DNA of 63,872 nucleotides, the filler included, from Kipferlia bialata (Eukaryota): assembly GCA_003568945.1 (NCBI GenBank). It is 4 parts of 4 records of this genome, joined end to end, with 100 filler letters (N's around TTAATTAATTAA, not from the genome) between each part and the next. Parts side by side here need not be neighbours in the genome. Positions count along the whole stretch, not along the records: positions 1 to 20,605 come from BDIP01000368.1; positions 20,706 to 41,256 come from BDIP01000370.1; positions 41,357 to 61,808 come from BDIP01000372.1; 1 more part is not named here. The stretch is one strand, 5' to 3'. How positions within the stretch are numbered: position 1 is the first letter of the stretch; each line of letters opens with the position of its first letter. Shown piece by piece: positions 10,664 through 58,451 of this stretch. Under the pieces are notes generated by a model that was given only the letters and a program-made list of their open reading frames with translations, ran no database searches and was not told the origin of the DNA. The translations under genes and the position numbers were made by a program.

Positions 10664-13600
10664 ATGCACGAGATACTGATCTTCCTCCTGACTGCAATTG
10701 TGTGCTATGCCGTGTGGCGCTTCTTCCCCAGGTATGTGTTCTCCTTCGCCTCTCTCTCTCCCTCTCTGACCCCTTAGGCCTGACCGCCGCTTCATGGCCC
10801 TCGAGCTGCCCGAGAGCGACCCCCACCAGAGCGAGGTGGACCAGGCGAAGCTGGAGAGGTATGTGCTGTGCATATTATGTGCATTGGGTGTAGTGTGCAT
10901 GCATGGTGAGTGATGTCATATTCGTCCAAACCTGCCATACCCCTCCACTCCTGTACTCCCCCATTCCATCTGCTTCCATATCATTAATTAATGCATTTGG
11001 TGGTGTACCTCTCCCTAAGATATGTGGAATGAGTGGAATATAATGCCACATTGTTCATTCTCTCCGTTCGTTCTGTTCATTCGTCAGTGCCGCACCGCTC
11101 AGATGCATATAGAATAGATAGAATAGATAATATATGCATGTTCATCTATTTATCTATATATAAATAGGAGCACTCTCTCCCATTGATACAGTCTGTATTT
11201 TCAGTTTCTCAGAATAGATATGCTATTCTGAGGGCACTTCCGCTTGTCTAGGACCAGACTCTCACCCACACCCACACACACTCTCTCTCTCCTACTTTCT
11301 GTAATAGTAGACGTGTTCCCTCACCCCCAGGTGCCGCACCGAGGCCGAGTCCCTGACCCACCGCTCCAGGATGTGTGACTGGATAGACTACCACGCAAAG
11401 ACAAGGTGGGTGTGTATATATATATATATGTATACTACAGTGTATACCTCACCCTCTAGGCCCAATGAGATTGCCCTGATTGAGCATGACACCGACTCCA
11501 CCCTGACCTGGGCACAGCTGTCCACAGCCACAAAGGTAATATATGATATATATACATATATATATATAGTATATATTGATAGATAGAGAGATAGACACCG
11601 ACTCCACCCTGAGATGGGCACAGCTGTCCACTGCTACTAAGGTATGTACTGTATTATCGTGGATATATTCATGCATGTATATATATGCATACTGATACTA
11701 ACCCCAGGCCTTTGCCGCCCAGCTGATGGCCAATGGCATTGGCAAGGGAGACGTCGTGGCAACCACTCTGGTCCTGCTCAAGGTAGGCAGGGTGGATATG
11801 CACATATATATGTATGTGTATGTATATGAAGGATATGAGGAGGTCTGGTCCTTACTGGCTACCACTCTGGTCTTGGTGGATATGTAGAATATATGGTATA
11901 GGGCATTGCCACTCTACCTCTCTCTCCCCCTCACCCCAGGAGCACATCTACGTGATGTATGCCTGCTACAGGATCGGTGCCATCATCGCACCCCTCGACC
12001 CCAGGTACAGTCATGTTGTATACATAGCACTCTGTGGTATACATACCTTCACCCCTGGTAGTAGTGGTATATACCTAATATTATATATATATGTGTGTGA
12101 GTATGTATATGTGTGTGTGATATGTAACCCACCCCCAGGCTGAAGCTCAACGAGATCAGGGTACTGGTGTATACCTAATACTATATATATATGTGTATAT
12201 GAGTATATCCCTCACCCACCCAGGCTGAAGCTCAATGAGATCAGAGAGGCCTTTGACGCCATGAACCCCAAGGTACCTCACGGAGTGTACCTACATATCT
12301 CGACATCTCTCTCTCTATATATATATATGTATATACACACCCACCCCCAGGCCTACCTGTACCTTGGCCTCACCAGTGAATTCATCATATCTCTCTCTGT
12401 GTGTATTCATTCTCTCTGTCTCTATATCTATTTTCTTACTACCAGGCCTACCTGTACCTTGGTCTCACCAGTGAATGCATGATCTCTCTCTGTGTGTGTA
12501 CATTCATTCTGTCTATACTATCTATACGGCTTACTACCAGGCCTACCTGTACCTTGGTCTTACCAGTGCAGCAGACTTCAGGAAGGCAGCCAAGGGTATG
12601 TATAGTCATATATACATTGATATAGTGTATATATGTTCTTCTTACCCCAGTCATGATGGTTGAGCACACGTCTCTCTCTGTTGCTCTCTCCCTACATGCT
12701 TGTCGATTTATATAGTGTATATGTACATATATATGTATACCCCTTTGACCCCAGTCATGATGGTTGAGCACCCTGAGACCTCTCTGTTTGTGCAGTTCCA
12801 GGGAAAGGGGCCTGACGGTGAGTGTCATTATTATATGAGTGTACATATACTTGTGTATGAGTCATAGTATTCCATATATGTGTCCGTCTCTGCATTTCCA
12901 GGGCTAGGGGCCAGACGGTACGTATTGTCTGATATATATCTCTATATACCATAGGATATCTTTACTAAACATCTGACCGTTCATACTACCAATGCATACC
13001 CCATTGATCTCATGTAGTATATGAATATACTGTGCATAGCAATACTTCCCTAACCCCCAGGTGAGGACCCCGAGTCTCTCATCATCGAGGGGGCTGTGTC
13101 TGCCACAGGGTAAGTGCATACCCATATGTTTATGTCCTATGTATATATATATATATATATATCCATGACAGTGTCTGCTACAGGGTATGTTGTGTATAGC
13201 AGTATCGCACCTATGTGCCACACAACATCCCTATTGGCATCAAGGGCACTCACTCTACATGTCTTGTGTTAGTACCAAAACATATATATATACTTGTATA
13301 CCCCTCCCACCCCAGCTTTGCCCAGGGCATCAAGGGCACATACATCAGGTCACTAGTCTCTGGATCACTCGACAGGTGGGGACAGCGTGTATGTATCTAT
13401 ACTTATCTTCTCGGGCATATACATTTCTACTACAGTACCCCCCTCACCCCCAGGGCCATGCGCCGTGTGTCCCCCACCGACCCATGCCTCATCGTGTTCA
13501 CAACAGGTGGGTTAATGGATTATATATACTCTGTACATATATACAATATACATCAGAACACATGTATGCCGATACCTGCCTCAACGTGTTCACAACAGGT

Positions 13601-16600
13601 GCAGGGGGTGACTATGTCTCTATACTATATATACTACATACACTATGTATACTCATGCACTCATTCAATGAGTCATTGTGTTCACAAATAGGTATTACCA
13701 CATACTATAGTTAAGAGTATGACTAAATGTGCCGTAAATGACAAATTTGCCATGCCTCTATATGTATATTCAGAAATATCTCTGCGTTATTTCTCCATCT
13801 CTCTTCCTCTCTCTCTCCCACCCCAGGCTCCACTGGTAAGCCCAAGCCCGCCCTCCTGACACACCGTGGTATCCTGTGCCAGGTACGCTATCTCTCTCCC
13901 TCTCTCAATATGTCAGTGTGGTAGATACTTTCATGTGTACACACATACAAACACCCCAGTTCCTGTCACTTGTATGTGTATTATTCTCTCTCCCTCCCCC
14001 TCACCCCAGTCCCTCTCCCTGGCATGCATGTTCGGAGTGACCCAGCAGGACAGGTGTGTGTAATATATTGAATTATATATGCATTGAGAGAGAATGTATC
14101 CCTCACCCCAGGATTCTGGCCAACCTCCCCCCCTCCCACGTCGGTTGCCTCTGTGAGGTCCTCGGACTATGTACGTTGTGTGACATACTGTACTCACCTA
14201 AGTACCCTTGCGTTCACCTATATACTGTTACCAGATTGGTATGTTCATCAGCATTATGACCTCTATCCTAGTTGCCTACTGCGGCAACTCCCTCTCTCTC
14301 TCTCTCTCTTACCCCCTCTCCCTTTCTCAGTGCGTATATACAAGAGCATGTATTCTCACCCGAGCTGCCTACTGTAGCAACTCCATGTGTGGACTCTTCT
14401 CTCTCTATATGTATTGTGTGTGAATAGCATGAATTCAACTGTCTCCTCACCCCAGCTGCCTACTGCGGCAACTCCATGGTTGTGCTGCACATGTTCACAC
14501 CGGAGGGGTCCCTGGAGGCCATCCAGAAGCACAAGGTAATTAATATGAATATATGTGTACTATATATATAGCATAGAGTATGTATATGCATACATATCTA
14601 TATGTATACATGTTCACACCCGAGGGATCACTCGAGGCTATCGAGAAGCACAAGGTATGGTGTATATGTGTGTTGATATATGTGAACTGATACATACTCA
14701 TACATATGTGTTTGATTCCTGATTTATCATTCCAACCCCAGGTGACTGCCCTTGGCCAGATCCCTGCCCTGTACAGGATGGAGTGGAGGCACAAGGACTA
14801 TGCTCAGGTGTGTATATGTATAGTGTATGCACATATATATACCCCCAGACCGACCTCTCCTCCATGACATGTGTATATGTATGTATCTATATGCATATGT
14901 GTGTGTCTCCTATATGCCCTCACCCTCCAGACCGACATCTCTTCCATGCGGTTTGCTGTCCACGGTGGGTCCATGGTGGATGCACAGTTCATCGATGACC
15001 TGAGGTAGGGTTGTGTATAGATATTTGTACAGATATTAGTGTGAGTATGTTGACTCTCTGTATGTGTATATATGCACACACACTCTCTCACCCCCAGGGC
15101 CATGGCCCCCGAGGCCAGCACCTCTGTCTCTCTCTCACTATACACACATATATATTTACAAATGTAGTTCTGTTTAGTGCTGCCTTACCCCCCAGGGCCA
15201 TGGCCCCCGAGGCTGGCATCTCTTTCTCTCTTTCTCTCTATTCATATATATAAGTGTTTATGTTTAGTGCTGCCTTACCCCCCAGGGCCATGGCCCCCGA
15301 GGCTGGCACTGGCCTGGGTCTGACCGAGACATCAGGCTTCTGCACATACACACCCACAAAGGGGACAGCAGAGGAGCTGGCAGCATCTGTCGGTACGGGT
15401 ATTCTTTTGGATATGTAGATATATGCATGTATACATATATATCGTTTTACCCTCACCCCAGGCCACGCCTCCCCCATGCTGGCCATGTCCATCAGGACAC
15501 CCCTGTCCACAGAGGGCACATCCACAGAGGTCATGGGTGGAGAGGTAGGGGGTGTATATATGTGTTTGGAAATGTATACGTCAACTGACATATTATCCAC
15601 AATACCAATGTTTCAATACATATCTAGGTACCCACCCCCACCTCCAGATCGGCGAGGTGTGCTTCAAGGGCCCCCAGGTCTTTGCCGGGTACTACAAGGC
15701 AGAGGCTGAGACACTCAAGTGCATGTCCAACGACGGCTGGCTCCACACAGGTATATATGGATAGATATATTTGTGTATATATATAGGGAGAGAGAGGCAG
15801 ATACTATTAGTATATATTATATATTTAAGTGCATGTTCAAGGACGGCTGGCTCCACACAGGTGTACATAGAAATTTATCCCCATCTATATATATATATCT
15901 ATATATTTCCGGACACCTGTTGCTCTCTCTCTTTCTCTCTCGGTATGTGTCACCTTCTCTACCTCTCATCCCTGGACTACGTTGGCTCAATAGCCCCCGA
16001 TGCATGTTTCTCTCTGGCTCTCCCTCTCTCTCGCATATTTCATATATATCCTATTTCTATTATACTTAACCATATTACCCCAGGTGACCTAGGCACCATC
16101 GCCCCCGATGGCCTCCACCTCAAGGGCAGGTCCAAGTTTGTGGTCAGGCAGAAGGGGTACCAGGTACTGTTATTGTCAGATACAGAACACAGAGTATACT
16201 TTATCTTGTGAATGTGTGTATATGTATATGTATATGTGTCTGTATGTGGTCAGGCAGAAGGGGTACCAGGTATTGACAGTATATGTATTATATGGGATGG
16301 TACATTAAGTATATCACATATATTATGCACAGTGTAGTGTTTGTGGTCAGGCAGAAGGGGTACCAGGTACTGTTATTATCAGATACAGTATACTCAGGGT
16401 AGTATATGTATATTTGTTTGTGTATGTGTGTGTGTATGATACTGGATAATAGTGTGGCCCTCCCATGTCATGTGTGTAGTGTGTATCCCTCTCCCTCTTC
16501 ACCCCCAGGTGTACCCCCCCGAGATCGAGGACTTTGTCACAAAGAGAGTGCCAGAGGTATGGTGTGCATATCTACATACATAGAAACTGGTACTGATACA

Positions 16601-17291
16601 AATTTACATTGGATATATACATATGACATTGTCACAAAGAAAGTGCCCGAAGTATGTATGCATACATGGATATACACATACACCCCTATGTAGCAATGCT
16701 CCATTATATATGTGTAGATCCCCTCACCCCCCAGGTTGCCCAGGCCGTTGTGGTCGGGTCCAAGCACGCAGTGTATGGCGAGGGCATTGTGCTGTTTGTG
16801 GAGGCAGAGGGACACGCAGAGGCAGAGGCTGAGGGTGATGCCGACTACTGTGAGGGGGTGGTCAAGGCAGTGCATGCAGTGTGCAAGGTGTGTGGTGTAT
16901 ATAGTATATGTGTAGTGTATATATATATATATAGTATTATAGAGTATTTTTTTTACATTATATGTGAATTTTCCCTACCCCCCAGGAGATGGCTGCCTAC
17001 AAGAGAGATGTACATGGTAGATGGGTATATATATATATTATTGGTATATATATATACATATCATATATATATATATATATGCCTCTTATCTATCAGGAGA
17101 TGGCTGCCTACAAGCGGCCCCTCCACGTTGTCGTGCATGGCGGCCCTGGGTCCCTGCCCCTGAACAGGGTGTCCAAGATAGACAGGAAGGCACTCACGGC
17201 CCAGGTGAGTGGTGTATGTACACTATGATACTAATGCACACTGGGTTTTGTACAGTTTGTGCTACCTTTACTCACTCACTCTCTCTCTCAC

Positions 17292-17328
<37 letters not shown>

Positions 17329-17416
17329 GCACTCTCTCCCCCCCCCTCATGTGTCTGACCCCCAGGGTGAGGATGTGGTCCAGACCCTGAGGACTGAGGG
17401 AGGGTGGGACGCTTAA
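10664..17416 (+). CDS. Acyl-CoA synthetase / AMP-binding (class I adenylate-forming) enzyme with N-terminal membrane anchor; about 26 exons
   Basis: Hand-spliced exons start at ~10664, 10778, 11331, 11460, 11708, 11940, 12224, 12541, 12755, 13061, 13316, 13454, 13827, 14010, 14112, 14456, 14742, 14931, 15286, 15462, 15648, 16084, 16509, 16735, 17097 and 17366. They give MHEILIFLLTAIVCYAVWRFF, IVFTTG|STGKPKP (P-loop), GLGLTET, GEVCFKGPQVFAGYY, DGWLHTG|DLG, GRSKFVVRQKGYQ|VYPPEIE, PLNRVSKIDR and a stop at 17416. Confidence 0.9.
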
Positions 17417-17752
17417 GTGCCCAGAGACAAGAGGTTGACAGAGAGAGAGAGAGAGAGAGAGAGTGAGAGAATGGCTGGAAGATCAAGACACCTGCACTCT
17501 CTAAGTGATACTATACATATAACTATACCCCTATACCTGGGCTGTGCCCTTGTCCATAGGTGTCCACAGGTGCCATTGGACTAGGGACACAGTCGTCATA
17601 ATAGACAGTGCTCTGAGGGTGCATTGTCATTGATCTGGCTCCTGTACTTTCACATCAAGATTATCGTGCGCTACCATCATACTGTATACCATGACCCTTT
17701 CTCTATATGCTGATGAAGACTGGGCCGTATGGTACAAGATATCCTTTCATCT

Positions 17753-20430
17753 CTATTTGAGGCCCAATCTAACGGATATCTCTTCATATGCCTCCAGTAG
17801 CTCAGTCTTGATACCGCTGTATAGTTTGCTGAATATCCTAATGTACTCCTCCCCACTGCACGTGGGTGTACCTCCAAACTCCTCGGAGGCCTCAGTGTAC
17901 TTGTTCCACACGTCCTAGGGGTGAAAAGCTCCTATGTAAAGAGTACTCACAATATCTGTATTGATATAGGCACCTATTATGTACTGTATTATACATCTAA
18001 GGGCAAATGGGTGGATATCACACAAGTCGAGACCTGCGTCCCTACCTCTGTGAATAGGCCTGCCTCCATGGCCTGGCGACACAGTGCACTTCTCTCCTCC
18101 CTGCGATAAGGTGGGAAAGGTGGAAGCCTTCCACTGGAAGGGTAAGTGTATCGGGCAAGACAGGAGAGAGGGGGGGGGGGTCACACAAAGAGAGAAGGGG
18201 GGGGGGAGGGCGTCACACAGAGTAATATATGGAATCCCAGGAAGACCAACTACACTAGAAGACCTAACTCTCAGTGTGTATATATCATGTCATGTGTATG
18301 TAGCACTGCTATTCACCGACCTAGATAAGTCTGTCATCAGTGCAACCCCCTCCATCTTCCTATAGTGACACCATGCCACTTGGTCCTCTGTATGGTCTTC
18401 AAACTGGGTACAGGCGAAGATACTGGGGTGAGACAAGAGACCCATCTCGAAGAGAGACAACTGCGCATACAAATTGACATAACTAGAGTATAGTAATAGT
18501 CTCGGTATTGATAACGCATATGCAGTAGAACACGGACTATATTGCATCCGATACAGAGAAACTTTCCAATACCAGTTAACCACAATGTTTTGATGATGAA
18601 GTAGAGTGATATTCAAGCTAGGGCATAAGATGAGCTATACAACACCCACCCCTGTGCTATCTTGTAGTGATAGTATGTGTGCAGCTCCTCCTCAGTGAAC
18701 ACCCGGGGGTCCCACAGGGGGTCATATGCATCACACTCTACGTGTGTAGGGATCATACCCCATATAATGGTCACTAGAGAAGGGTGCCTAAAGTCGGATA
18801 GGGAATCGGATATTCCGGTGCTGGCCACACACTTCTCCGAGGGTTCTATCATACCGTGTACGGTACAAGAGCCAGAGATACGTTGAGTTTGATGTATATC
18901 AGTGTCTTATATAGAGAGAAAGGGTGTATCGTATACAATCTAGAGACAAGCACCGTTTCTGACTGTCAGCCTTAATGTAGGTGACACTCCTCGGTTATGA
19001 CTGTACATAGTGTCACCAGTCTCTGCCATATACATAAGGCTCAATATTCCAAGTAATACAGGATTTAGTAATGAAGTAAATCCTGGAAACACACTTCATA
19101 ATACTCTTCCTCCTCGTTCTAGTCTAGAACCCATGTGCAACAATTTCCCAGCTAGTTCTTCTAGTCACAACATCCATCTTGCCTCTGGGCCTCTCTCCTT
19201 CTCCTCATCTCTGCCATCCTCTCATGAAACCTCAGACGTCTAGCCTCTATCTCAGGCCGTTTAGCCTCGAGTTCGGCGGTTATCGCCTCACTCTGTCTCT
19301 GAAGTGCACGGGTTCTGTCCCTACACGCCTCTGTCTTGTGCTGCTGCTCCTCTATCCACTGATTTTGAATCTGACAGAGCTTCGCAGCCTCTGCCTGCAC
19401 TGACTCCACCAGTGCCGCCATGTCTCTCTCAGCCTGTGCCTTAGTGTCTACCAGTCCTTGTCTCAGTTGTATGACCTCTGCTTCAAGACTAGCCTTTGCA
19501 CAAGTACACTCCTCTAGCTGGGCTGTAAGGCTGGCCTCTCTCTCTCTCCCTAACCTCTCTCTCTCCCTCCCTCTGGCAATCTCTGCCATCAGTGAGTCCA
19601 GGACGTCATCCATTTCCCTCCTAGCACGCTGTCTGTACTCTTGTACCCGTTGCTCAAGAGCTGTCAGGTCAGAGAGGTATGAGAGGTTATGTGCAATATA
19701 CACACATATATATGCACATATGAACATATCCTGTTTTAGCAGGGCAACAACAACTATATCAACAAGTACTTTCATACAGGTAGTGCATGTGACATGCACA
19801 GAATGAAGCGGATACACAACGAAGAATGTATAATGATACAGAGCTATACTTTATATATTGGCCAATAGCTGTCGAGTCAGAGAGGTATAAGAGCAAACAG
19901 AAATACACATACATACATATAATGAACATATCCCGTTCAAGCAGAGCCAAATATCAATGATCGCAATCTGAAGTGTATGTGACATGTACGCATTGAAGTG
20001 GATACACAACGAAGAATGTAAATATAGAGCTAGAAGTATACATGTCAAGTGGCGTAAACCTATGCACTCGGTATCATACTATGAAAAGGGACATACACAT
20101 TGTATACATGTCGCCCACCTGACGTAGGTCCTGAACCCTGAGAGTCATCAGTCACATCATCCATGTGTGGCTGTGTGTGTAGTGGAGTGGCGTCTGCCTC
20201 TGACACCCCCAGCCCATCAGTACCATCAGCACCAGATGACATAACAGGAGACATGCCCTGGCCTAGAGTAAGCAGTCTGGGGATATATACCTATAACTAT
20301 ACATATATATATATATATACTCTGACCCTGGAGGAGACATGTGGTGGCCTATAGTAAGCAGTCTGGGGATATATATATACTATACTATACTATATATATA
20401 TACTCTGACCCAGGAGGAGACATATGGTGG
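17753..20430 (-). CDS. Putative multi-exon protein with a central coiled coil, function unknown
   Basis: Coiled-coil ORF 19161-19817 (LEQRVQEYRQRARREMDD...) plus further exons at ~18852-18645, ~18460-18325 and ~18133-17995. A terminal exon follows the acceptor cttttcacccctag (17914) and reads DVWNKYTEASEEF...VRLGLK to a stop at 17753. Could be more than one gene. Confidence 0.45.
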
Positions 20431-20605
20431 CCTGAGGTGAGAAGAATGGGGTGAAGGATGCCAGGAATACACAAGAGAGAGGTTAAGAACCTGTTCAACA
20501 CAAAAAAGGTGGAGGATTGAAGTGTATATATATATAGTATGCGAGATCCCGAGTGAGATGGGAAGGGGGGGGGGGGGGGGGGGATTTTTCCCCCCCTCTA
20601 AAAAA

Positions 20606-20705
20606 NNNNNNNNNNNNNNNNNNNNNNNNNNNNNNNNNNNNNNNNNNNNTTAATTAATTAANNNNNNNNNNNNNNNNNNNNNNNNNNNNNNNNNNNNNNN
20701 NNNNN
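20606..20705. other. Artificial scaffold-joining linker (44 N + TTAATTAATTAA + 44 N)
   Basis: TTAATTAATTAA at 20650-20661 puts stops in all six frames. The same 100-bp layout recurs at 41257 and 61809. Confidence 0.95.
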
Positions 20706-23700
20706 CTCTGTGTGATGTTGACTCTGAGTACTCTCTCTTGGGAGAGACAGTCTGTACCACGTGCCCTGCTGGCTACTCTTGCTCCAATGCCGCTGCACCA
20801 TCTCTCTGTCTGGCGGGTACATTCTCCGCCTTGGGAGACATGACCTGTGATAATTGCTCCGCAGGTAGCTACTGTCCCATCGGATCCTCTCTTGAGACCG
20901 CCTGTCTGACTGGATACTGGTCTGCATCCAATGCCGATGCGTGCACTGTATGTGCTGCTGGTAAATACTGTTCCGACAGTGCCGTTTCTGGCGACTGTCT
21001 CGCCACCCAATACTCTCTGGAGGGTGAGTCTGACTGTACCATCTGTCCAGCCGGATACTCCTGCTCTGACCTTGCTGTCCCTGTCCTCTGCAGTGCCGGA
21101 GAGTACTCGGCCGCTGGTGAGCTCACATGCACCGAGTGTGGCATCAACACCTACTGCGAGGCTGGTGCTGCGGCTGAGACGTCCTGTCCCGATGGCCAGA
21201 TGTCGGCTGCCGGGTCTGGATCATGCACACAGTGCGGGAATGGAAACATCTTCGACACTGACACTGGAACCTGTATCGGCTGTGTCTCTGGTACCTACTC
21301 GATTGATGGCATCGAGTGTCACGTGTGTCCTGCCAACTACTACTGTCCTGACACTGATGCCACTACCACCATCATATGCGAGGCTGGTACATGGGCCACA
21401 GGTGGATTTTCTGCCTGCACTGAGTGTGAGGAGGGTTTCAGCTGCCCTGCCTCAGTGAGTGACACTGGCGTCCCTGTTGCCTGTGGTGACGGGTACTACA
21501 GTGACGCCAAGGCCACCTCCTGCATCCAGTGTGAGGCAGGGTATGCCTGTCCCTCCCCAGGCAAGGCCTCCGATAGGTATGCCTGTGGAGACTCCCCTGG
21601 GCCTGTTGGATCATGGTCCCATGCTGGGTCTATGGAGTGCACACAGTGCGTGGCTGGTGAGAAGCTTGACTCCGCTAGCACTGGGTGCGAGGACTGCCCA
21701 GCTGGTTTCTACACGAAGCTGGACGGTCAGCTCGAATGCATAGAGTGCGCTGCAGGATATGAGTGTCCCAACATCGACGGCACTGGTATTCTTGAGTGCA
21801 CTGAGGGTAGCTACTCGCTGGCTGGTGCCACTGCCTGTACATCCTGCCCTGCCAACAGCTACTGTCCAGATAAGGGTCTAGCCACTGTCACTACCTGTGC
21901 CGCAGGTACATGGGCCACTGGGGGATTCTCTGCCTGCACAGAGTGTGAGGAGGGATTCTACTGCCCCGTCTCTGTTAGCACTACTGGTGTGCCTCTCGAG
22001 TGCCCGACTGGGTGGTACTCTGGCCCCAATGCCACTGCCTGCACTGAGTGTGAGGCCGGATATGCCTGTCCCTCTGGTAAGGAGTCTGAGAAATACGCCT
22101 GTGACAGTGACGATGGCCCTGTTGGCTCTTGGTCCACACAAGGAAGTACCGAGTGTACTCTCTGTGTTGCTGGTGAGTACCTGGCCTCTGACAACACCGG
22201 TTGCCACAGCTGTTCGCCCGGAGAGTACACCAGCACAGATGGAGCCCTAGAGTGCATATCCTGTCCCATTGGCTTCGCCTGTCCCAACGTTGACGGGTCT
22301 GAGAACGTGGAGTGTCCATCTGGTAGTTACACCCTTGGCGGAGAGACTGCCTGCAACGACTGTCTGGCTGGATACTCCTGTGACAGTAACAAGACCACCG
22401 GTACTGCGTGTGAGGATGGCTACTACTCCCTAGGTGGGGAGGCCCTCTGCACCTTGTGCCCTGCTGGGTACTACTGTGACCAGCCAGATGAGGAGCCTAC
22501 CCTATGTGCCGATGGGTACTACTCGGCTGGGGGCACCGACACCTGCCACGAGTGCCCAGCTGGATCAAGGTGTCCTGATCCCTCTGGATCCCCTATCGAG
22601 TGCACAAGTGGATACTATTCCTCTGCTGGCTCCGTCTACTGCACCGAGTGCGATGGCGGATACTTCTGCGGAAACGGAGAGGTTACTGCTACCCCCGCGG
22701 CCGGTATATGCCCTAAGGGGTCCTACTGCCCAGCAGGTAGCAAGGTGTCCTACCTATGCCCTGCCGGTAAGCTTGGTAGCTCCACTCACCTTGCCTCCAT
22801 AGATGAGTGCACAGACTGTCCTGCCTCATACTACTGCCCTGCTGGTACCACGGACGCCACCCCTCAGACATGCGAGCCTGGATACTACTGTCCCGAGGGC
22901 ACCAGATATGCCTCTGAGTTCCCTTGCTACTTAGACTCTTCCAGGTTGGCTACATACTCCACCTCAAGCGGCCTGTCCTCACAGGACCAGTGTACGCTAT
23001 GTCCTGCTGGCAAGTACTGCCCCCGTGGTCAGTCCGACCTCTCCTCCTTCGACTGTCCCACTGGGTACTACTGCCCAGAGGGCACATACTCCTACGCCAC
23101 ATTCCCTTGCCCAGCTGGTACTTATCGAGATACAACAGGTGCCGAGAGCTCAGATGAGTGTTCCACTTGTACCATTGGCCACTACTGTCCTATTGGCTCT
23201 ACCACTGCTACAGAGTGTCCTGCCGGCCGTTACAACCCCTCCACCGGTGGTGTCTCTGTTGCGTCCTGTCTTCTCTGTACCGAGGGCCACTCCTGTGACA
23301 GCGCTGGTCTCAGTGCTGTAACAGATGATTGTGCCGCTGGCCACTACTGCCCCGCTGGCACTGCTGGATCCACCAGCCACCCTTGCCCAGCAGGCACCTA
23401 CACGACGTCTGTGTCTCTGACTGGGCGTGATCAGTGTACCATATGCCCTGGCAAGTATGGATGTCCCGAGGGCTCTGCGGACTACTCTCTCTCTTGCGCC
23501 GCTGGACACTACTGTCCCGAGGGGTCCCCCAATGACCACTACTTCCCCTGCCCTGCTGGTACCTACTACGATGGTATTGGGGATAGCCTCGAGGCAGCCT
23601 CTGAGTGCACGCCTTGCACTGCAGGGTACTACTGCCCCACTGGGTCTACAGCTGTGACCGAGGAGTGTCCAGCTGGGTACTACTGCGAGGAGGGCACAAC

Positions 23701-41256: not shown

Positions 41257-41356
41257 NNNNNNNNNNNNNNNNNNNNNNNNNNNNNNNNNNNNNNNNNNNN
41301 TTAATTAATTAANNNNNNNNNNNNNNNNNNNNNNNNNNNNNNNNNNNNNNNNNNNN
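41257..41356. other. Artificial scaffold-joining linker
   Basis: 44 N + TTAATTAATTAA (41301-41312) + 44 N. Confidence 0.95.
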
Positions 41357-41894: not shown

Positions 41895-43232
41895 GTCCGC
41901 AAGACCCTGAAGGACCTGATCGCAGTGTTCGAGAGAGGTATGACGTGTATGTATGGAATAAGATGAATAGTGATATTGGATATTTGATGAATTCACTTGT
42001 ATGTAATTATATATTAATATATTATATTAGTATATTATTAATATAATATGTTATAGTTATTGTAATATGGTGTGGACAAGGTCCTTCAGTTCACACATCA
42101 ACATGGCAGTCTTACTGTAGGCATCCATATATTACTGTGATTGTATGTAGCTTTCATATATATATATTTATATATATATATATATCCGTCTAACCTTAGG
42201 CATCCAGAATGTCAACAGGATAGACCCACCCAAGAAGAGTGCCAAGGCAGTGAATGAGGAGCTGAGGTACTCTATCTGTATGTATAACCATATATAGTTA
42301 TGTATGCATATATCATAGTCACCACTGTAGCATATGTGGTATATCAGTATATATACCATTTGAATGAAACATATAATTTAATCACTACTTCAGCATACGT
42401 ATTGTGATGTATATATATTATTGGGTAATGCATTGACACTCAGGGAGCTCCACTCTGACCTCCTGTCCCAGAGACCACCCCTGCTGGAGGGGACAGAGGC
42501 ATCGGAGGTATATACACTATACACTATATACCCCTTATACAGATACATATACTTCCACATGTACAGCAGAGTGGATATATACATATACACTGCTTTCACT
42601 TATACTAGGCTGCCCAGGCTGCTGCCCAGCGCATTGTCAAGATACAAAAATAGTTAATATTGTATACCGTTGCATTAATTACCATAAGTAGATATATATA
42701 TTCATATGTACATATATATGTTTTGTCTCATTTCCAGGTTGCCCAGGCTGCTGCCCAGCGCATTGTCAAGAGACTGCTGCTGGAGACAGTGTTCACACCC
42801 ATGATGAGGGGTATGTATGTACAGTGTGGAGTAGATATAGTATACAGTGTACCCTATAGTATGAGGCATGTCTTCTATGGTGGGTATGTTCCCCTCTATT
42901 TCTCTCTCTCTCTCTAATGCAAAAGGACACCTTCAAATGGGCCTCTCTCTCTCTCTCTCTCTCTCTCCCTCTCCCTCTTTGTCTCTCTGTGACAACTCTC
43001 TAATGCATCGACACTTACAGAGTGCACTTGATTCCCTCCTTGTCAGTACAGATGCCCTTGTGGCAGAGTCTCTCTCTCTCTCTCTCTCTATCTCTCTCCC
43101 TCTCTTCCTAATATATAGGCCATCTACAGAGTGCACTTGACTCTCTCCTTGTCAGTACAGATGCCCTTGTGGCAGAGTCTCTGCGGCACAAGGCATTTAT
43201 ACCCAACAAGCACAGGTATAGAGTGTATAGGG

Positions 43233-43274
<42 letters not shown>

Positions 43275-43440
43275 GAGGGTCTGAGACACAAGGCATTCAT
43301 ACCCAACAAGCACAGGTATATATATATAGTGTATATATATATATAGTATATATATATATATAGAGAGAGAGAGATAGAGAGAGAGATGGCCTTGTGGCAC
43401 AAGGCATTCATACCCAACAAGCACAGGTAGATATATGCAG

Positions 43441-43473
<33 letters not shown>

Positions 43474-43629
43474 GGAGAGAGAGTCCCTGAGGCACAAGGC
43501 ATTCATACCCAACAAGCACAGGTAGATATATAGTGTGTATATATATAGAGAGAGAGAGAGATAGAGAGAGAGAGATGGCCTTGTGGCACAAGGCATTCAT
43601 ACCCAACAAGCACAGGTATATATATATAG

Positions 43630-43672
<43 letters not shown>

Positions 43673-45875
43673 TCCCTGAGACACAAGGCATTCATACCCA
43701 ACAAGCACAGGTAGATATAGCGCATATAGTGTATGTAGTGCATGTATATAGATAGAAAGAGTGAGAGAGCATAAAGCACAAACAATCACAAGGTTATGTC
43801 TATAGAGTGTATAGTTATCATATATAGTATATATATATAGAGAGAGAGAGAGAGACAGTCATAAGGGTATGTCTATAGAGTGTAGCTCTTTACTCCTTCT
43901 CTCTATACTTACTCTCTCTCTCTCTCTCTATGCTTTACTGTAGAGTTGTAGAGGCTCTTACCTTTGGCTGGACCACCCTGTGCTACTCTCTGTCTCTCTG
44001 TCTCTCTCTCTCTAGCATCTCTGTTTAATGCTAGGGTCATTGAGACCCTGACCTTTGCCTGGACCACCCTCTGTTACCTCTTTGAGAGTGAGCAGGGACT
44101 GTGCACACTGGCCAGAGGTACTATGAGTAATACATATACACTGTGTATGTATATATTCACTATATGTGTATGTATGTGTACTTCTCTAGTCTAAGTGTTT
44201 TAGAGTGAGCAGGGACTCTGCACACTCGCTAGAGGTATAGAGACTGTATATAGTAGTAGTATGCTTGTGTATTTGGTCTAGCTCTTTTCTGTCGTGTCCC
44301 GCGTTAATTTACATACTACCACTCTCTATCTCTGGCTTTTGTGACCCTCGACACCCTCGACACCCTCAACGGTCAACTTACTACAACCATTACTTCTCTC
44401 TATCGATCTCGTGTGTGTGTGTCTCATGACTCCCTCTATTCCCTCTGACCACCAGCCCTGTGGCCCAACGAGTATAAGTGTAAGTATTCACTAGAAGTAT
44501 ACATATGTATATTATATATGCATATATTATTGTATATAGTATGTGTACGTCTATTGTATCTCGTTACCCCCATCTGACACCCAGCCCTGTGGCCCAACGA
44601 GGAGGGACGGGCAGAAGGTATGGGCAACCATGTATATATGCATTTATATATGTACTATATGTACTACCTGGGTAGCTCTACCTAATATATATATATATGT
44701 GTGTGTTATATCATATATATATCATATATATATATGCACTAATCTTTAGGTGTCACTGATGCCGAGTGGGAGCAGGAGGAGAGAGAGAGCAGTAACAATA
44801 TACATACCAATTCATGTGTATAGTGTATCTCTATACATACTGACACCAGGTCTCACTGACGAGCAGTGGGAGCAGGAGGAGAGAGAGAGGGAGGAGGCCC
44901 ATGGGGTCATGGTGACAGAGAGTGACCCAGCTGGGCTAGATAAGTGAGTGGTCTACATCTGCTCCACCTATGCCCAGAAGAAATAGTGTTTGTTTTATGT
45001 TTCTAATGTATTAAAAATACTCTATTGCTTCTATTGCTATACTCTTGCTAACCTCAGCTACATCTGCTCCACCTATGCCCAGGAGAACCTGGCTGAGCAG
45101 CTGGCTGTGTTCATATCAGGGGGCATTAGGTAAAGACATGTATTTGAATGTATATATATGTGCGTGTGTGTATGTATAAGAGAGTATCTGGCTGAGCAGC
45201 TGGCTGTGTTCATATCGGGGGGTATCAGGTATATGGTACATATCCTTTATACCCATGTATATAGTATATACTTCATATTCATATAGCATTCATATCTGGG
45301 GTATCAGGAACTCGGGAATACACATTATACAGTGTAATTCATCTGATAGTTGTACCTGTATAGTGGGACATCCCCTACTATATATTTCTCTCTCTCTCCC
45401 CCCCTCGTCACCCCTATTTCACCTCAGTGAGATGTTCACCTAAAAAGTGTTCTCTCTCTTTCTCCCTCTACACCCCTTATTCACCTCAGTGAGATGTCCA
45501 CATACAGGTTCAGGAAGTGTGTGAACGGACTGCCAAGGCTCAAGGTATGTATATACCAATGTGTATACTACATTCTGTTCCATGGATGTGTTTCGACGTG
45601 GATGTGTGGTTGTTGCATTCTGTTTGGTGTGTCAACGGACTGCCCAGGCTCAAGGTGTGCATTGACATATGTCCTTTCTGTAGATATACCTAATACATTT
45701 CTTCTGTTTCAATGCTATTCAACTGTATTTATGCGGGTCTTTGTCCATATATGTGAGTTTTGTATCTACGAACTGCCAAGGCTCAACGTAGAACTCTTTT
45801 TCTCTCTGAGTGTATGTAGATATTATAGTTCATTTCTTACCCAGGCCGCTCTGAAAATTGCCCTGACTAACAAGG

Positions 45876-45921
<46 letters not shown>

Positions 45922-46493
45922 TTCTATATATACTATACCCATCTCACCCCCAGGCCGCTCTCAACATTGCCCTGACCAACAAGGCTCTCTCTCTCTCTCA
46001 CACACACACACACTCTGAATATATGAATATATAAACAAAATAATATATATGTACTATAGTCCATTTCTTACCTCAGGCCGCCCTCAACATTGCCCTGACC
46101 AACAAGGCTCTCTCTCTCCCCCCCTCTCTCTCTGATTATATACATATATATATAAACTATTCATTGTATGTCTTACCCCAGGCCGCCCTCAACATTGCCC
46201 TGACCAACAAGGCATACACCATATATATATATGCATATATAATATATACATACATACATACATATATATACATATATATATATATATACATATCTAACCT
46301 CAGGCCGCCCTCAACATAGCCCTGACCAACAAGGCATACACCATATATTTATACATATATATATATATACACCATATATTTATACATATATATATATATA
46401 GATGCAGATATATAATTAATACACACATATATATATATATATATGTATACATTCCTTACCCCAGGCCACTCTCAACATCGCTCTGACCAACAA

Positions 46494-46536
<43 letters not shown>

Positions 46537-46650
46537 GATATATGAATACATATATATATACTGTAGTCCATTTCACACCAGGCTACTCTCAACATTGCCC
46601 TGACCAGCAAGGACTACACCATATATATATACATAGTTATATATAATATG

Positions 46651-46701
<51 letters not shown>

Positions 46702-49700
46702 ACATCTATACATTTCTAACCTTAGGCCGCTCTGAACATCGCCCTGACCAACAAGGCATACACCAACAGGACAAACATATTCCCTACCATTGCATCCCTC
46801 AGGTATGTAAGTATCTATATATGTATATATGTATGTGTTAATGTATATATGTACATTATGGTATACACCAACATATTCCCTACCATTGCATCCCTCAGGT
46901 GTGATTTGTATCCGTCCATAATGTTTATGGATACATATTTCTAATATCGATGTCTATATTGTCGGTATCAGTGTCAGGCGTCCACCCCTGACTTTGTGCA
47001 ACTTTTCAGACGTAGTTCTATGCCATATTTAGTCTTTAAACTACTATTGTTCTATAATGACTATACTATTATAGTTACTGACCCTTTAGGAACTGGCTGA
47101 GACTCAGTGAGAGGGACCCAGTGGCTGTCAAGAGGTATAGTGATACATATAACTGTAATTTGTATATCGTATAGTACTTATATATATACATATTAATAGT
47201 GTATATATGTTGTATATGTATCAGACTCAGTGAGAGGGACACAGTGGCCGTCAAGAGGTATATTAGCATATTACAGTATAGTTAGTAGGAATCTATATTT
47301 ATGTTGATCAGAAGTACCGGTTCGTATTTGCATTATATGAGTGTATGTGTAAGCCCCATTCTCCCCCCAGACTCAATGAGTGGATCCAGATGGACCAGCT
47401 GGTGTATATGTATATGTATATATGTATATATGTACATTTTGTATATATGTATATGCAGTACATTGTGAATAGTACCAGTATCATATATATAACCTTACTC
47501 ACCCCAGACTGAACGAGTGGATCCAGATGGACCATCTATACAGTACAAGTTATGTATAGTATCAGTATTGTATGTTAGAATATATGTTTATGTATCTAAC
47601 CCCCCAGACTGAACGAGTGGATCCAGATGGACCAGCTCGGGTTCCACACGGTACGTCTCCCTCTCTCTCTCTCTCGCCCTACACCCTTATTCTATTATTA
47701 TTAATAATGTCTAGGACATGGTCTCCCACCTTGTGCAGGTCTCTCTCTCTCTCTCTCTCTCTCCCTCTACACCCCTATTCTCTCTCCCCTCTACACCCTT
47801 ATTCCAGGACATGGTCTNNNNNNNNNNNNNNNNNNNCTCTCCCCTCTACACCCTTATTCCAGGACATGGTCTCCCACCTTGTCCAGGTCTCCACATCCAG
47901 GAGGGCAGTGCCCAGAAAGATGCCTAAGAGGTATATATATATACACCCACCCACCCATATATATATATATGTAATGTAAATACATATTTGTAGTATATGA
48001 GAGAGAGAGAGAGAGTACACAGCAAGGAGGGCAGTGCCCAGGAAGATGCCAAAGAGGTATGTATATATATATTAATTAATGTATATTAGTATACTATTTA
48101 CGTACTCTTTATACGGTAAGAGAGAGAGATAGTGTCTACATCAAGGAGGGCAGTGCCCAGGAAGATGCCAAAGAGGTATATATACACACGCACATACACA
48201 CATATATATAGTGTAAATAGATATATATATGTAGTATATGGGAGAGAGAGAGAGAGAGTACACATCGAGGAGGGCAGTGCCCAGGAAGATGCCAAAGAGG
48301 TATGTGTATATGTATGTTCACTATATTTACACATTGTCTATTATGTATATAGTAGGGTAGAGAGAGAGAGAGGGAGACGGGAGGCGCCCAGGAAGATGCC
48401 AAAGAGGTATGTATGTGCACACATATGTACACCCATACACATATATACATATGGTGTAAATAGATATATATGTAGTATATACGAGAGAGAGAGAGAGTGT
48501 GCACATCAGGAGGGCAAAGAGGTACGGGTATATGCCATGTTGGGTGCATGTATTATGGTACTTATCATCCCATCTCTCTATGACCAAATGATTGTTTATG
48601 TATATTTTCATTGCAGGCTCAACTCTCGTGGCTTGAAGATCTTCTCTCTCTCTCTCTAGTTATATATGACTATATATGTGTATATGCAATGTACTCACTC
48701 TAGGCTCAACTCCCGTGGGTCCCTTGTGTCCAGAGACCACAGGCCATCGTGCTCACCAGAGGTATGCATGTATATGTACATATATACATATAGTACGTAT
48801 ATATATATATATATATATATATGGATAGAGACCCAATGGGGGAGAGAGGGACCACAGGCCATCATGCTCACCAGAGGTATGCATGTATATGTACATATAT
48901 ACATATAGTACGTATAGATATATGGATAAAGACCCATTGGGAGAGAGAGGGATCACAGGCCACCGTGCTCACCTGAGGTGTGCACTATATTCCATTATGT
49001 AATATGAAGTTGGGGTAGTTATCTGTCCTCACCGAGGCAACTCTCTCTCTCTCTCTCTCTCTCTCTAATGTCTCACTATTCATACATACCCTTACCTGCA
49101 GCTGGCCGACCCCGTTGCCGAGGCAGAGAGGCAGAGGGAGAGAGAGAGACAGAGAGAGGCAGACGCCAAGCTGCACAGGGTGGAGGGTATGTATATGAGC
49201 ATATGTATTTGTATATATATAGAGAGAGAGAGGGGGGGGGAGAGAGGAGAGGGGGAGAGAGAGGCAGACGCCAAGCTGCACAGAGTGGAGGGTAGGGACA
49301 TATTCTCTCTTACTCTAATGTTTGTATAATGACTTTCTGGTATTGTTTAGGGTAGTTGTACTCTCTCTTTCTCATATCCAGGCACTGTTGTCAAGAGGGG
49401 CATTCAGTTATATTATGCAGAATACAATAATTAGTAGTGTATAGTAATGCGTGTCATTCTTTGGTTCTATCTGATCCCTTAGGCACTGTTGTCAAGAAGG
49501 CTCTCGACCTCTAGTGATACTTGTAAACAATGACGTTTTGGTTGACACTAGTGTTATATATATTCAGCATATATATACATTGTCTGATCCCTTAGGCACT
49601 GTTGTCAAAAGGGGCAGGGCCAGGAGGGCATTTAGTTCTATTTTACAGTTTATGTTATGAGTAATATAGTGAAGCATGTCACATTTTTTAGTACTAATAT

Positions 49701-51255
49701 CCAGGCACCGTTGTCAAGAGGGGCAGGGCCAGGAGGGCAGAGGTGGAGGAGAGTGAGGGAGAGAGAGAGAGTGAGGGAGAGAGAGAGAGTGAGGAGGAGT
49801 CCAACGCAGAGGTATTAGTAGTGTTAGTCCCCATACTTCTAGAGTCTATGCTCCGTATATGGTATAGTGTGCTGAGTTGGATGAGTCAGAGGGAGAGAGA
49901 GAGTGAGAGGGAGAGTCTGAGGAGGAGTCCAACACAGAGGTAGTGAACAACTCTATATACACACACAACTGGATATATGTGTATACGGTTTCATATATTC
50001 TATACTCTATATGTACTATTCAATAGTGTACACGTGTACTCACCAGATACAAGTATATCATATACATCATATATACAATATATATAGTAAAATATATATA
50101 TGCCCTCACCCCAGTCCAGCACCGAGATGGTCGAGGTCGAGGGAGAGGTAGAGAGCGAGGCAGAGAGTGATGGAGAGAGTGAGGGCGAGGGAGAGGGAGA
50201 GAGAGAGAGTGACACTGAGGAGGAGAGCACTGGCAGTGGGTCCGAGGGACGTATACTCACCATATACAAGTATATCATATGTATCATATATACAATATAT
50301 AGTAGTAAGTCCTTACACCCAGAGCACTGGCAGTGGGTCCGAGGGAGACAGTGACTCATCCTCTGAAGGTCCTACACCACCAGGTATATTAGAGTGTATG
50401 TGTTCATTCCTATACTGATATATATATCCATACTATTATTATATAGTATATATAGTATTATATATATATATGTTGTTGGGTGACAGTGACTCATCCTCTG
50501 AGGGACCTACACCCCCAGGTATATCTATATATATAGTCTGTATTTATGGTTACTTAGGATATCACATACACACATATATGTAAAGACTGTGACTCATCAT
50601 CTGAGGGACCAACACCGCCAGGTACCCACACACACACACACGTATATATATATTTGTATATATTATTCTCTGTATTAGTCTGATAGCCAGTCCCCTCCAG
50701 GTACACCCCCTCCAAGCAGAAGCAGAGACCTTGCATATAGTACAACATATACTACTATATACATGTCATTGTATATATTTACCTCCAGTGCCCTCCAGGT
50801 ACACCCCTTCCAAGCAGAAGCTGAGACAGAAGCAGAAGGAGAGGGAGAGAGAGAGAGAGAGAGAGACTGAGGGAGAGGAGGGCATGGCTGCTGACATGGA
50901 GCTGGGGTCATTCGACTTCTCAGGTAGCTATATATACGAATATCACTATGCCCATTATTGCTGCATTACCTCTCTATCTAGTAGCTACTGACATGTGTAT
51001 ATGTATACATATACCTATATGCTGACATGGAGCTGGGGTCATTCGACTTCTCAGGTATGCATTCCTTACCCCTCTCTCTCTCTATATATATATACTATCT
51101 TACACACCAGAGGGAGAGGCCCCATCCATCGTGTCTGAGCCAGAGTCTCTCTCTCTCTCTCTCTGTCTCTCTCGCTATATGTATATATGTCTAACCTTCA
51201 AGAAGGCGAGGCCCCCTCCATTGTGTCTGAGCCAGACTCTCTCTCTCTCTGTCTG

Positions 51256-51287
<32 letters not shown>

Positions 51288-53962
51288 GTATATATCTATA
51301 TATACTTACATACCAGAGGGCGAGGCCCCCTCCATTGTGTCTGAGCCTGAGACAGGTGGCAAGAGAGAGAGGGAGGACTCAGACTACATACTGGCAGAGG
51401 TATGGTGTATATAATAGTATATATACAAATATGTTATGATACGTGGAGATAGAGAGAGAGAGAGGACTCGGACTACATACTGGCAGAGGTAGGGTATAAT
51501 ATATATGTATATATATACATAGAGAGAGAGAGAGAGGGAGGACTCAGACTACATACTGGCAGAGGTGTATAAACTGCATATAGTCTTTCTCTGTCTGTCT
51601 CTCTACACCCATATTCATAGGGCCCCAACCCCTTTGTCAAGAAAAATAGACATCTCTCTCTCTGTGTCTCTCTCTATATGAGTGAACGTATATAATAGAG
51701 TTTATAATAGAGTGTATTACATAGTGGATATTCACCCCAGGTCCCCACCCCCCTTGTCAAGAGGAGGAGACGTGCCCTGTCCAATGCAGCTCAGGTGGCA
51801 GAGGTATAGAGGGGTATATATATATGTATGTATAGAGAGATCATAGAGAGAGAGAGAGAGAGAGAGACGTGCCCTGTCCAATGCAGCTCAGGTCGCAGAG
51901 TTAAGGTTTCTATTTACATAAAGTGTATGTTTATGTATAGATTATACCTTTGTCGTACTCTCCTATATATATATGTGTGTATTTTTGTATTTATGTCTCA
52001 CTCCAGAAGGGGCAGGATTATCTCTCTCAATATATATGATAGTATTGTATCTTTCTATACTATCTCTATTTTTTTTTCATATCTAACCCTCCAGGAGGAC
52101 CATGTGTATATACTCTCTCTCTCTATGTACTCTCACTGTATATAGTCTCTCTCTTATGTATATGTACCTCTGTCTCACCCTAGGAGGCCTCTGTCTCCAC
52201 CAGAAGGGGCAGGAGGACAAGGAAGGAGACACCCACACAGGTGTGTAGAGAGTACTGTGTGTATATATATATATTTGAGGGAGAGGGAGAGAGAGAAGAA
52301 GAAGGACAAGGAAGGAGACACCCACACAGGTATATAGAGAGATATACAAGTATATATATATAGAGAGAGAGGGGGGGACACAGGTATATAGAGAGAGACA
52401 CAAGTATATGTACACTTATAGAGAGAGAGGGGGGAGGGGAGGGACAATGAAGGAGACACCCACGCAGGTATATAGAGAGATGTGGTATATATACATATAT
52501 ATATATGTATATTCACTGTGTATGCTACCTTACCCCAGTCTGAAACTCTGCTTGATGTACTATCAGACCTACACGAGGTATCAGTGTATTATGGTTACAG
52601 TGGGGTATATTATATATACTCCAATACATTTACATACCTCCAGTTCTAGACAGTCAGATACTATCACTCTCCCCCGCTCTGTATAATTAGTGAGTATAAT
52701 GATTGTACATTGTACCTCTCTCACCTTCTAGGAGTCCTCCAGATCATATATTCATGTGTGTATATACCCTAAGTATATATATATGTGTGAATGTATATTA
52801 CTTACCCCCAGGAGTCCTCCAGCTCAGAGCAGTCTGAGTCTGAGACTAGTACTACTGTCTCTCCATATAGACACTATTCATCACATATTTATGTGGTTAT
52901 ACATATATATATATATATATATATAACTTTCTCACCTTCTAGGAGTCCTCCAGCTCAGAGCAGTCAGAGTCTGAGACAGAGAGTGAGGGAGAGAGAGAGA
53001 GAGAGGAGGAGAGAGAGAGTGGCAGTGAGAGTGAGAGTGAGGTGACTGTCAGCATGGGAGAGAGAGAGGAGGAGGAGGAGGAGGAGGGGACTGAGACCCC
53101 AAAGCCTACATCTAGGTATCTGAGTGCTACACCTATTAGTAGTAACAGTGTCCTGAAATTTAGGGTGCATATCTATATATATACTAATCCTTATCTAACC
53201 CAAGCCTACATCTTGGTATGTGCACTACCCTTACTACATTGATCCCTTTTGTCTCTCTCTTTGTGTTCCTATACATATATATGGGTGTGTGTATATGTTA
53301 CCTTCTAACCCCAGGTCCGAGAGGGCTGCCAGGAGGGAGAGTAACAGGGTGGCCAGTCTCAGGTATATACTCTCTCTCTATATATATATACAAAGTGCTT
53401 TATGTATATGCTCTCTCTCTATATATATGTACATAATACATAATACATAATACTATGTATATATACCATATTTGTATAATATGGAGAGTGTCAGGAGGGA
53501 GAGCAACAGGGTGGCCAGTCTGAGGTACAGTGGAGTGATATACTATTTACTATATATGAGTAATACTAACTCTCATATCTCTATGTATATGTATGTACTA
53601 CTATAGTTTTATATGGGAGAGCAACAGGGTGGCCAGTCTGAGGTATGGTACTATATGAATATATATACTCTCTCTATATATATGTACATAATACTATGTA
53701 TCTATACTATATTTGTATAGTATATAGATAGTAATGGAGAGTGTCAGGAGGGAGAGTGTCAGGGTGGCCAGTCTGAGGTATATACTCACTCAATATATAT
53801 ACAAAATACTTTATGTATATGCTCTCTCTCTATATATATATATACATAATACTTTATATATATACTGTACTTGTATAGTAATGGAGAGTGTCAGGAGGGA
53901 GAGCAACAGGGTGGCCAGTCTGAGGTATAGATGTTTACACACCATGTGCCGTACATACACAC

Positions 53963-53995
<33 letters not shown>

Positions 53996-54152
53996 CTCTA
54001 TGTCTTTTACTCTAAGTATATGTATATGATAAAGTGTCAGGGTGGCCAGTCTGAGGTACAATCATCAAACATACACACAATGCGTTTTGTTAACACTGTA
54101 TAATGGTGACATACTGCAGTGAGTACAAGTCACTCTCCAGGGTCAAGCCCCC

Positions 54153-58095: not shown

Positions 58096-58126
<31 letters not shown>

Positions 58127-58332: not shown

Positions 58333-58365
<33 letters not shown>

Positions 58366-58418: not shown

Positions 58419-58451
<33 letters not shown>

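Follow-up and report, generated by a model that had tools for sequence, protein, structure and literature searches.

Intron copies of exon edges in Kipferlia bialata with an excess of silent differences

Introduction

The closest described counterpart of the elements considered here is the 'mirage' repeat of amphioxus, reported from Adh3 and from the globins BflGb6 and BflGb9 (PMC3087553). In the portion of that report consulted, mirages are tandem duplications across an exon-intron boundary, 5′ and 3′, which carry the AG or GT of the junction, form arrays of several units and leave splicing undisturbed. Here we describe copies of this layout in a 63,872-nt window of DNA from Kipferlia bialata (assembly GCA_003568945.1), to which all echo counts are confined. 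Each copy, which we call an echo, is an exon edge of about 30 nt that lies, together with its splice site, inside the adjacent intron; undisturbed splicing is seen here at a single intron. Within the window the echoes are real and pervasive. Their mirage-like layout is known; the pervasive, silent-biased form with mostly unrelated flanks appears to be new.

The amphioxus units are 81-100% identical, evolve in concert and occur in few genes, and the consulted portion of the report holds no codon analysis (PMC3087553). In K. bialata, by contrast, echoes occupy 53 of 84 modelled introns, keep the exon edge and the splice consensus while their flanks are mostly unrelated, and differ from their exons with a silent excess. 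Only 21 of 98 anchored echoes continue into intron sequence related to that beside the exon, and whole-unit likeness, a mirage trait, is found in the youngest arrays only; we therefore term the copies mirage-like.

Other systems share single traits, as described in the parts of the following reports that were available. Human CBS 844ins68 also duplicates an intron-exon junction, with the distal acceptor used and the upstream exon piece spliced out, and has been proposed as a gene-conversion template for the real exon; it differs in being a single 68-bp event whose skipped copy bears a damaging missense change, neither pervasive nor with a silent excess (PMC2630376). In the 37-bp variable number tandem repeat of human F7 intron 7, an authentic donor is followed by silent, potentially functional pseudo-donors and the most upstream wins, but its units are identical minisatellite repeats, whereas those of K. 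bialata measure ~105 nt and have diverged spacers (PMC1557585). Break-repair neointrons of Daphnia bear direct repeats at their edges as scars of the repair (PMC4202315), and introns also grow by duplication in intron gain by tandem duplication (cited in PMC3087553). There a new intron arises, whereas in K. bialata existing introns are lengthened and each unit misses one splice site. The words 'duplicat' and 'heterozyg' are absent from the main text of the K. bialata genome paper, and its available intron and repeat text shows no such copies (PMC5874029); nor does the examined portion of an intron paper covering the species mention them (PMC6679479). A literature search, mostly without subscription papers, found no description for K. 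bialata and no direct precedent.

Echoes occupy most long introns with a fixed polarity

A small gene finder with hand curation gave seven stop-free gene models with 84 canonical GT-AG introns. Outside confirmation concerns gene B only, an exon of which returned a single protein match, Kipferlia bialata KIPB_002297; the spliced model is identical to it (626 aa). Protein searches found no annotated protein for gene D, and for this reason its reading frames depend on the stop-free chaining of exons together with in-register mismatches. Uncurated sequence is excluded from the counts; this comprises genes at 9200-10600 and 17500-20605 (minus strand) and the stretch of gene C that precedes the gap. 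The segment 50115-50249 was handled as intron.

An unbiased scan, aligning every modelled exon without gaps to both flanking introns, returned 109 echoes in 72 arrays (54 donor and 55 acceptor echoes), compared with 2 matches in 90,680 nt of non-adjacent introns as control. An earlier set of 99 echoes, in which 10 long ones are missing, underlies the splice-site information content, echo order, median length, four-gamete and transition-ratio figures. Occurrence follows intron length: echoes are present in 0 of 15 introns below 100 nt, in 10 of 24 between 100 and 199 nt, and in 43 of 45 longer ones.

Polarity is nearly absolute. In 108 of 109 cases upstream copies consist of acceptor plus exon start and downstream copies of exon end plus donor, and the remaining one, whose exon is interrupted by a gap, is tied; in introns bearing both kinds, donor echoes lie ahead of acceptor echoes (12/12). 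The copies carry one splice site only, as an earlier note on this DNA had said: AG precedes 12 of 54 donor echoes, mostly as (AG)n tracts, and GT or GC follows 2 of 55 acceptor echoes. Tandemly duplicated or mutually exclusive exons were rejected, the copies not having both splice sites apart from those exceptions, and the echo being absent from an RNA contig presented below.

The median echo is 30 nt long and the median unit 105 nt. Spacers have medians of 71.5 and 77 nt, with 3 of 95 under 40 nt, and we call them whole-intron sized on that account; the shortest echo-free introns measure 46-60 nt. Echo and spacer together make up about half of intron DNA. Gapped echo-exon alignments revealed 12 indel cases, 5 of them in frame. 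Directly before 13 of 48 donor echoes (null 3.1; 6 of 33 arrays) stands an (AG)n tract, and directly after 16 of 48 acceptor echoes (null 3.1; 10 of 34 arrays) a (CT)n tract, with reversed placement in 0 of 48. The two placements are one arrangement viewed from opposite DNA strands. A putative splicing role of the (CT)n tract is an alternative account of that tract, and tract placement and the scarcity of spacers under 40 nt are not fully explained. A looping-out of echoes by paired (AG)n and (CT)n tracts is not supported: AG comes before CT in 30 of 32 tract pairs, but co-occurrence is not above chance (p=0.36).

An introner or mobile intron leaves dispersed similar inserts with identical short flanking repeats (target-site duplications). 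This candidate was also rejected; in a self-comparison of the window the distant matches listed were only microsatellite-rich or Cys-repeat, and the copies differ by 0.2 at synonymous sites.

Differences between echo and exon are mainly silent

The features of gene D and of its arrays are as follows.

41895-53362, + strand: gene D, 25 modelled exons, stop-free, 58 echoes; strongest silent excess; model not independently confirmed
43274-43710, + strand: array of 5 donor echoes of exon 43119-43215, mostly with (AG)n ahead
45845-46621, + strand: array of 7 acceptor echoes of exon 46726-46802; the branch-point/AG variant differs from echo to echo, and variants are mosaic
48018-48406, + strand: array of 4 donor echoes of exon 47863-47930
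49382-49630, + strand: array of 3 acceptor echoes of exon 49705-49811
50478-50621, + strand: two donor echoes of exon 50323-50383
53489-54055, + strand: array of 5 donor echoes of exon 53315-53362

Eight exon-echo pairs singled out in the earlier note were found in place (two off by one base) and their 29 synonymous to 3 non-synonymous codons were recovered; as a general picture, however, this ratio falls short, the pairs having been hand-picked and six of the eight coming from gene D. The further statement that copies diverge almost only at synonymous sites does not survive the unbiased scan, in which 63% of unique differences are synonymous, not ~90%.

Over the 109 echoes, with 4 nt trimmed at the inner end of each unless stated otherwise, differences at codon positions 3, 1 and 2 number 150, 44 and 21, which gives 149.5 synonymous to 65.5 non-synonymous (70%). 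When each variant is counted once, 110.5 of 175 are synonymous (63%, confidence interval 55-70%); a dead copy compared with a fully constrained exon should reach 41%, the null (p=6e-9). This null spans 39-45% for transition ratios of 1-4, in agreement with the ~40% expected in the earlier note, and the excess holds across them. The proportion of differing synonymous sites (pS) is 0.20 and that of non-synonymous sites (pN) 0.031, a ratio of 0.16. Without trimming the synonymous share is 61%, under lenient scoring (13 control matches) it is 53-55%, and other settings overall give 53-66%.

The silent excess in the window is real, uneven and strongest in gene D, where 60 of 85 unique variants are synonymous (71%). 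Gene B has 21.5/36 (60%, p=0.012), genes G and A have 5/7 and 4.5/8, and all genes except D together reach 50.5/90 (56%, p=0.003). In a frame-free test on one echo per array, 36 of the 60 mismatch pairs of gene D are in register, against a null of 0.34 (p=0.0002). Variants segregating among the echoes of one array are likewise mostly silent (38 synonymous to 16 non-synonymous; neutral share 27%, ceiling 42%, p=3e-5), with all 16 non-synonymous ones private to a single echo, while variants common to all echoes of an array stand at 10:1.

These figures bear on a plain account, in which the copies are ordinary mirage repeats in neutral decay and the excess is local to gene D or stems from unmodelled mutation or detection bias. 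Gene E agrees with it (18.5 of 38 synonymous, 49%, not significant), as do the lower share under lenient scoring and the frame-free test outside gene D, which gives no signal (39 of 113 in register, p=0.40). The frame-based excess outside gene D and in the frame-confirmed gene B argues against it, as does stability over transition ratios, and it leaves the consensus-preserving divergence of splice sites, presented below, unexplained; we regard it as improbable.

Two further observations concern gene D. The segment 50115-50249 is an open stretch of 45 codons, a longer version of the start of exon 50323-50383, with a copy of the same intron end ahead of it, and is either a genuine exon or a long echo whose exon was an older or allelic one. 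An echo of exon 45058-45129 at 44944-44982 begins 9 nt past the upstream donor, without an acceptor of its own.

Gene B: tandem arrangement and present decay

Gene B, which has the confirmed reading frame, allows the echoes to be compared with homologues and with read contigs.

10664-17416, + strand: gene B, class I adenylate-forming (acyl-CoA synthetase-like) enzyme, 26 exons, 20 echoes; equals KIPB_002297, PF00501
11594-11641, + strand: donor echo of exon 11460-11535; 3:1 synonymous to non-synonymous codons
12883-12917, + strand: donor echo of exon 12755-12817, decayed; it has a stop codon and is altered at invariant Q195
14456-14535, + strand: exon B16, the copy in the spliced RNA contig, 0 differences; GT..AG joint skips 206 nt
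14608-14654, + strand: donor echo of B16, 47 nt plus GT; 5 synonymous to 1 non-synonymous; skipped in the RNA contig
14849-14866, + strand: acceptor echo with family-consensus L361 (L in 101 of 119 homologues; the exon's I in 18)
15827-15860, + strand: donor echo with consensus K474 (50 versus 2 homologues); decay change at S473

The contig check covered 14430-14812 (383 nt); gene D, which bears most of the signal, lies outside it. One 909-nt DNA contig spans exon, spacer and echo of this segment with 0 differences, so that the serial misassembly which the earlier note had named as a danger is not seen at this locus, exon and echo standing in tandem. The DNA run behind the contig, which holds 0.98 of sampled words from 10600-17450, may be the window's own source and is not independent. 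A 1926-nt contig comes from a run presumed to be RNA, its 0.18 word share fitting the 0.161 expected from exons alone. This contig has the exon copy, is joined GT..AG across the 206-nt intron and reads on into the adjoining modelled sequence; echo alleles in spliced RNA, which the same note proposed to look for, are absent from this contig at the one locus checked. Contigs drop rare forms, and they show presence, not absence, be it of rare echo use or of a rare second allele.

That the echoes are an assembly artefact, with haplotypes or strains joined in series, is highly improbable. The draft is built from short reads, and the near-identical units at 43339-43719 (94% alike) may be miscounted; against this stand the 909-nt contig, whose run is possibly the window's source, the 0.98 word share, and the strict polarity and truncation of the copies. 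As a cause, an artefact is ruled out at 14430-14812 only.

Comparison with homologues points to decay. Twelve of the 17 amino-acid differences in gene B echoes introduce a residue found in 0 of 119 homologues; one of the 12 is a stop and others fall at invariant Q195 and G314. A single decayed echo accounts for five of the 12, and five are located within 5 nt of a junction. In three of the 17 the echo has the commoner residue: I361L (101 versus 18 homologues), N474K (50 versus 2) and R520K (44 versus 6). Echoes look to be decaying at present, with a constrained past. The protein-level constraint proposed in the earlier note is supported for the past, the null being exceeded, and not supported for the present, given the stop, the damaged invariant residues and the 12 differences alien to the family.

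Echo splice sites diverge within the consensus

GT is retained in 49 of 51 anchored donor echoes and AG in 42 of 47 anchored acceptor echoes. Over the last 12 nt, echo acceptors depart from the real acceptor at 4.75 positions, and their consensus still amounts to 6.2 bits (9.1 for real acceptors), where an equal number of random changes would leave -1.8 +/- 0.7. The echo donor consensus is 5.7 bits, compared with 6.0 for real donors and 0.8 +/- 0.5 under random change. Differences at echo splice sites are thus splice-neutral as well as silent. A consensus kept despite this divergence implies that the lineages from which echoes derive were selected for splicing and coding after parting from the exon lineage. 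All modelled introns have a branch-point-like YTNAC 3-6 nt ahead of the 3′ AG.

Intact splice signals and whole-intron sized spacers would also suit use of the echoes at the RNA level, in rare alternative, recursive or stage-specific splicing, under direct selection. In recursive splicing, or in a stwintron, the echo edge would gain its missing site from the first splice. Thirty of the 33 exons with donor echoes end in AG, a possible recursive acceptor, but so do 44 of the 51 exons without them; among exons with acceptor echoes, only 4 of 34 begin with GT. Neither exon-end AG nor exon-start GT is enriched with echoes. Recursive splicing would not constrain codons, stops and frameshifts are present, and at one locus the RNA contig carries the exon copy and skips the echo. 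We consider RNA use very unlikely.

Origin of the echoes

The reading that we favour, at a probability of roughly 0.55, is that echoes are tandem junction duplications of the amphioxus mirage kind, fed by copying from, or exchange with, diverged working alleles. The silent excess likely records other working alleles, ~20% divergent at synonymous sites, followed by a short neutral decay. Because no second strain was found, allele exchange is a step that we infer.

The process might begin with a DNA break repaired on a diverged homologue. Synthesis would pass through the homologue's unlike intron and ~30 nt into the exon, and the product would be end-joined to the broken end instead of annealed. 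The result would be the own exon and nearly the whole own intron, followed by the echo and by the homologue's splice site and intron. Only products whose innermost splice sites still win would survive, which would give the polarity. Later misaligned exchange between an echo and the mate's exon edge could add and refresh copies. In the parts of the sources available, aborted synthesis-dependent strand annealing closed by end joining is known in Drosophila (PMC8951532), and metamonads lack non-homologous end joining (NHEJ), fornicates lack Rad51A and keep two Dmc1 copies, and key meiotic genes are retained (PMC8516963).

Under an allele-derived origin, echo and exon would be joined by a long constrained path, subject to purifying selection (~0.2 per silent site), and the echo would add only a short path as a dead copy (~0.01-0.03). 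When the observed distances are split, the constrained path exceeds the decay path overall by a factor of 4-10. This model would need no selection acting on echoes, and low dN/dS (the ratio of non-synonymous to synonymous divergence) between a dead copy and an exon need not signal selection on the copy.

Simulations bear on the two models that the earlier note had offered. The first makes echoes spare parts that are swapped into the coding position; here it is weighed in the form in which such recombination, by single-strand annealing or unequal exchange, is frequent enough for damaged echoes to be purged by second-order selection. In a single-lineage simulation with birth, loss, unequal crossover and conversion, in which exon damage was rejected and echoes were free of selection, all 15 settings gave synonymous shares of 0.32-0.39, so that swapping within a lineage does not yield the excess in these settings. 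By argument, promotion frequent enough to police echoes would homogenise them unless diversity were already high, and the stop and the changes at invariant residues speak against purging. Ciliate-type pointer repeats, to which the earlier note loosely likens this model, undergo programmed precise deletion between repeats in the somatic genome; no such echo-to-exon deletion joint occurs over the 383 nt of DNA contigs at 14430-14812, from which rare variants drop out. The kept splice consensus agrees with spare parts, as does a pN that is lower beside the splice site (0.021 versus 0.038 farther away, p=0.02) under the 4-nt trim, the difference giving p=0.26 with an 8-nt trim. Single-strand annealing is open to metamonads, in the portion of the source available (PMC8516963). 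We think this model unlikely by itself; it could add to the favoured reading, in which reciprocal products of the exchange promote echoes.

The second model, divergent alleles in tandem, fares better of the two. A toy haploid population, with echoes at no point under selection, was run in eight settings with three runs each, at rates picked by the author to bracket the data. With synonymous diversity (piS) of ~0.2 and echoes born from or exchanged with other alleles, it reproduces the data (share 0.68-0.78, pS 0.19-0.25, pN 0.02-0.04); without inter-allelic birth or exchange the share is 0.35-0.38, and at low diversity pS is 0.07 or less.

The templates could instead have been a lost set of homeologues or paralogues, left by an old hybrid or polyploid phase, and not alleles of the present population. 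This also predicts equally silent and splice-neutral differences, needs no present hyperdiversity and fits the family-consensus residues in echoes. One array of seven copies with many acceptor and codon variants exceeds two subgenomes, though, and no second K. bialata copy of gene B is among its 120 best matches, which makes this origin rather improbable.

Several points weigh against exchange with working alleles. The toy simulations show sufficiency, not truth. The model requires recombination and a piS near 0.2, which is extreme and here an assumption, and allelic introns that are unalignable at that distance. Sex has not been directly observed in Metamonada, according to the part of the source available (PMC8516963), in which the relative Carpediemonas membranifera is predicted to be haploid. 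No second allele at 80% likeness appears in the DNA contigs over the 383 nt at 14430-14812, the KIPB_002297 protein cluster has one member, and two metagenome scans turned up no relative, none of their 109 and 104 pattern matches being confirmed. The evidence comes from one window, within which gene E and the frame-free test outside gene D give no excess, the predicted rise of pN with distance from the splice site is weak, and the four-gamete test had only 3 site pairs, 1 of them incompatible.

We tentatively put forward a wider possibility, itself doubtful: that K. bialata routinely swaps introns by homologue-templated repair, failures leaving echoes in most long introns, while recombination refreshes echoes from working alleles and promotes them into the gene, so that the genome would be an archive of past population alleles. 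If exchange with working alleles is true, stacked echoes would provide allele-level variation and evidence of genetic exchange from one genome of a free-living metamonad. Past diversity and outcrossing would be readable from an apparently single-allele genome, in a group in which sex is unobserved as far as the available part of the source goes (PMC8516963). Echoes would also show how introns can grow and change their content in a lineage that has neither NHEJ nor Rad51A, and would offer a natural means of testing how a splice site is chosen when several intact ones compete.

Other genes and minor observations

The remaining models with echoes are listed here.

1620-5477, - strand: gene G, 10 exons, 5 echoes
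6746-9114, + strand: gene A, 6 exons, 3 echoes
54999-61808, + strand: gene E, 15 exons, 19 echoes; synonymous share 49%, not above the null
62473-63709, + strand: gene F (5′ part), 3 exons, 4 echoes

Three acceptor echoes of gene G at 5208-5477 differ from their exon by in-frame indels of 3-6 nt. At 54710-54919, three acceptor echoes are protein-level variants of gene E exon 54999-55075, with the peptides HTHL-MYMYDM and HTHL-VHLYEW where the exon has HTHL-VFVYDM. A few acceptors and echoes end in AAG, such as 61784 and its echo 61692. The C-terminal stretch of gene E is presumably DnaJ-like, the GHSLG motif of gene A we take to be lipase-like, and the STYAQENLAE stretch of gene D (45058-45129) resembles what we assume to be zinc-peptidase motifs.

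The closest relatives of gene B are archaeal or bacterial (45-52% identity), with Promethearchaeota first among the named matches and no other eukaryote named among the 120 best; this hints at lateral transfer and a later gain of many introns. At 20706-40469 lies a Cys-rich gene of very large size, with more than 6,000 codons across a gap; its modelled part has only five short introns (52-81 nt) and no echoes. An identical 12-nt linker, TTAATTAATTAA, lies between runs of N at 20650-20661, 41301-41312 and 61853-61864, marking contig joins, so that at least 4 records are concatenated in the window.

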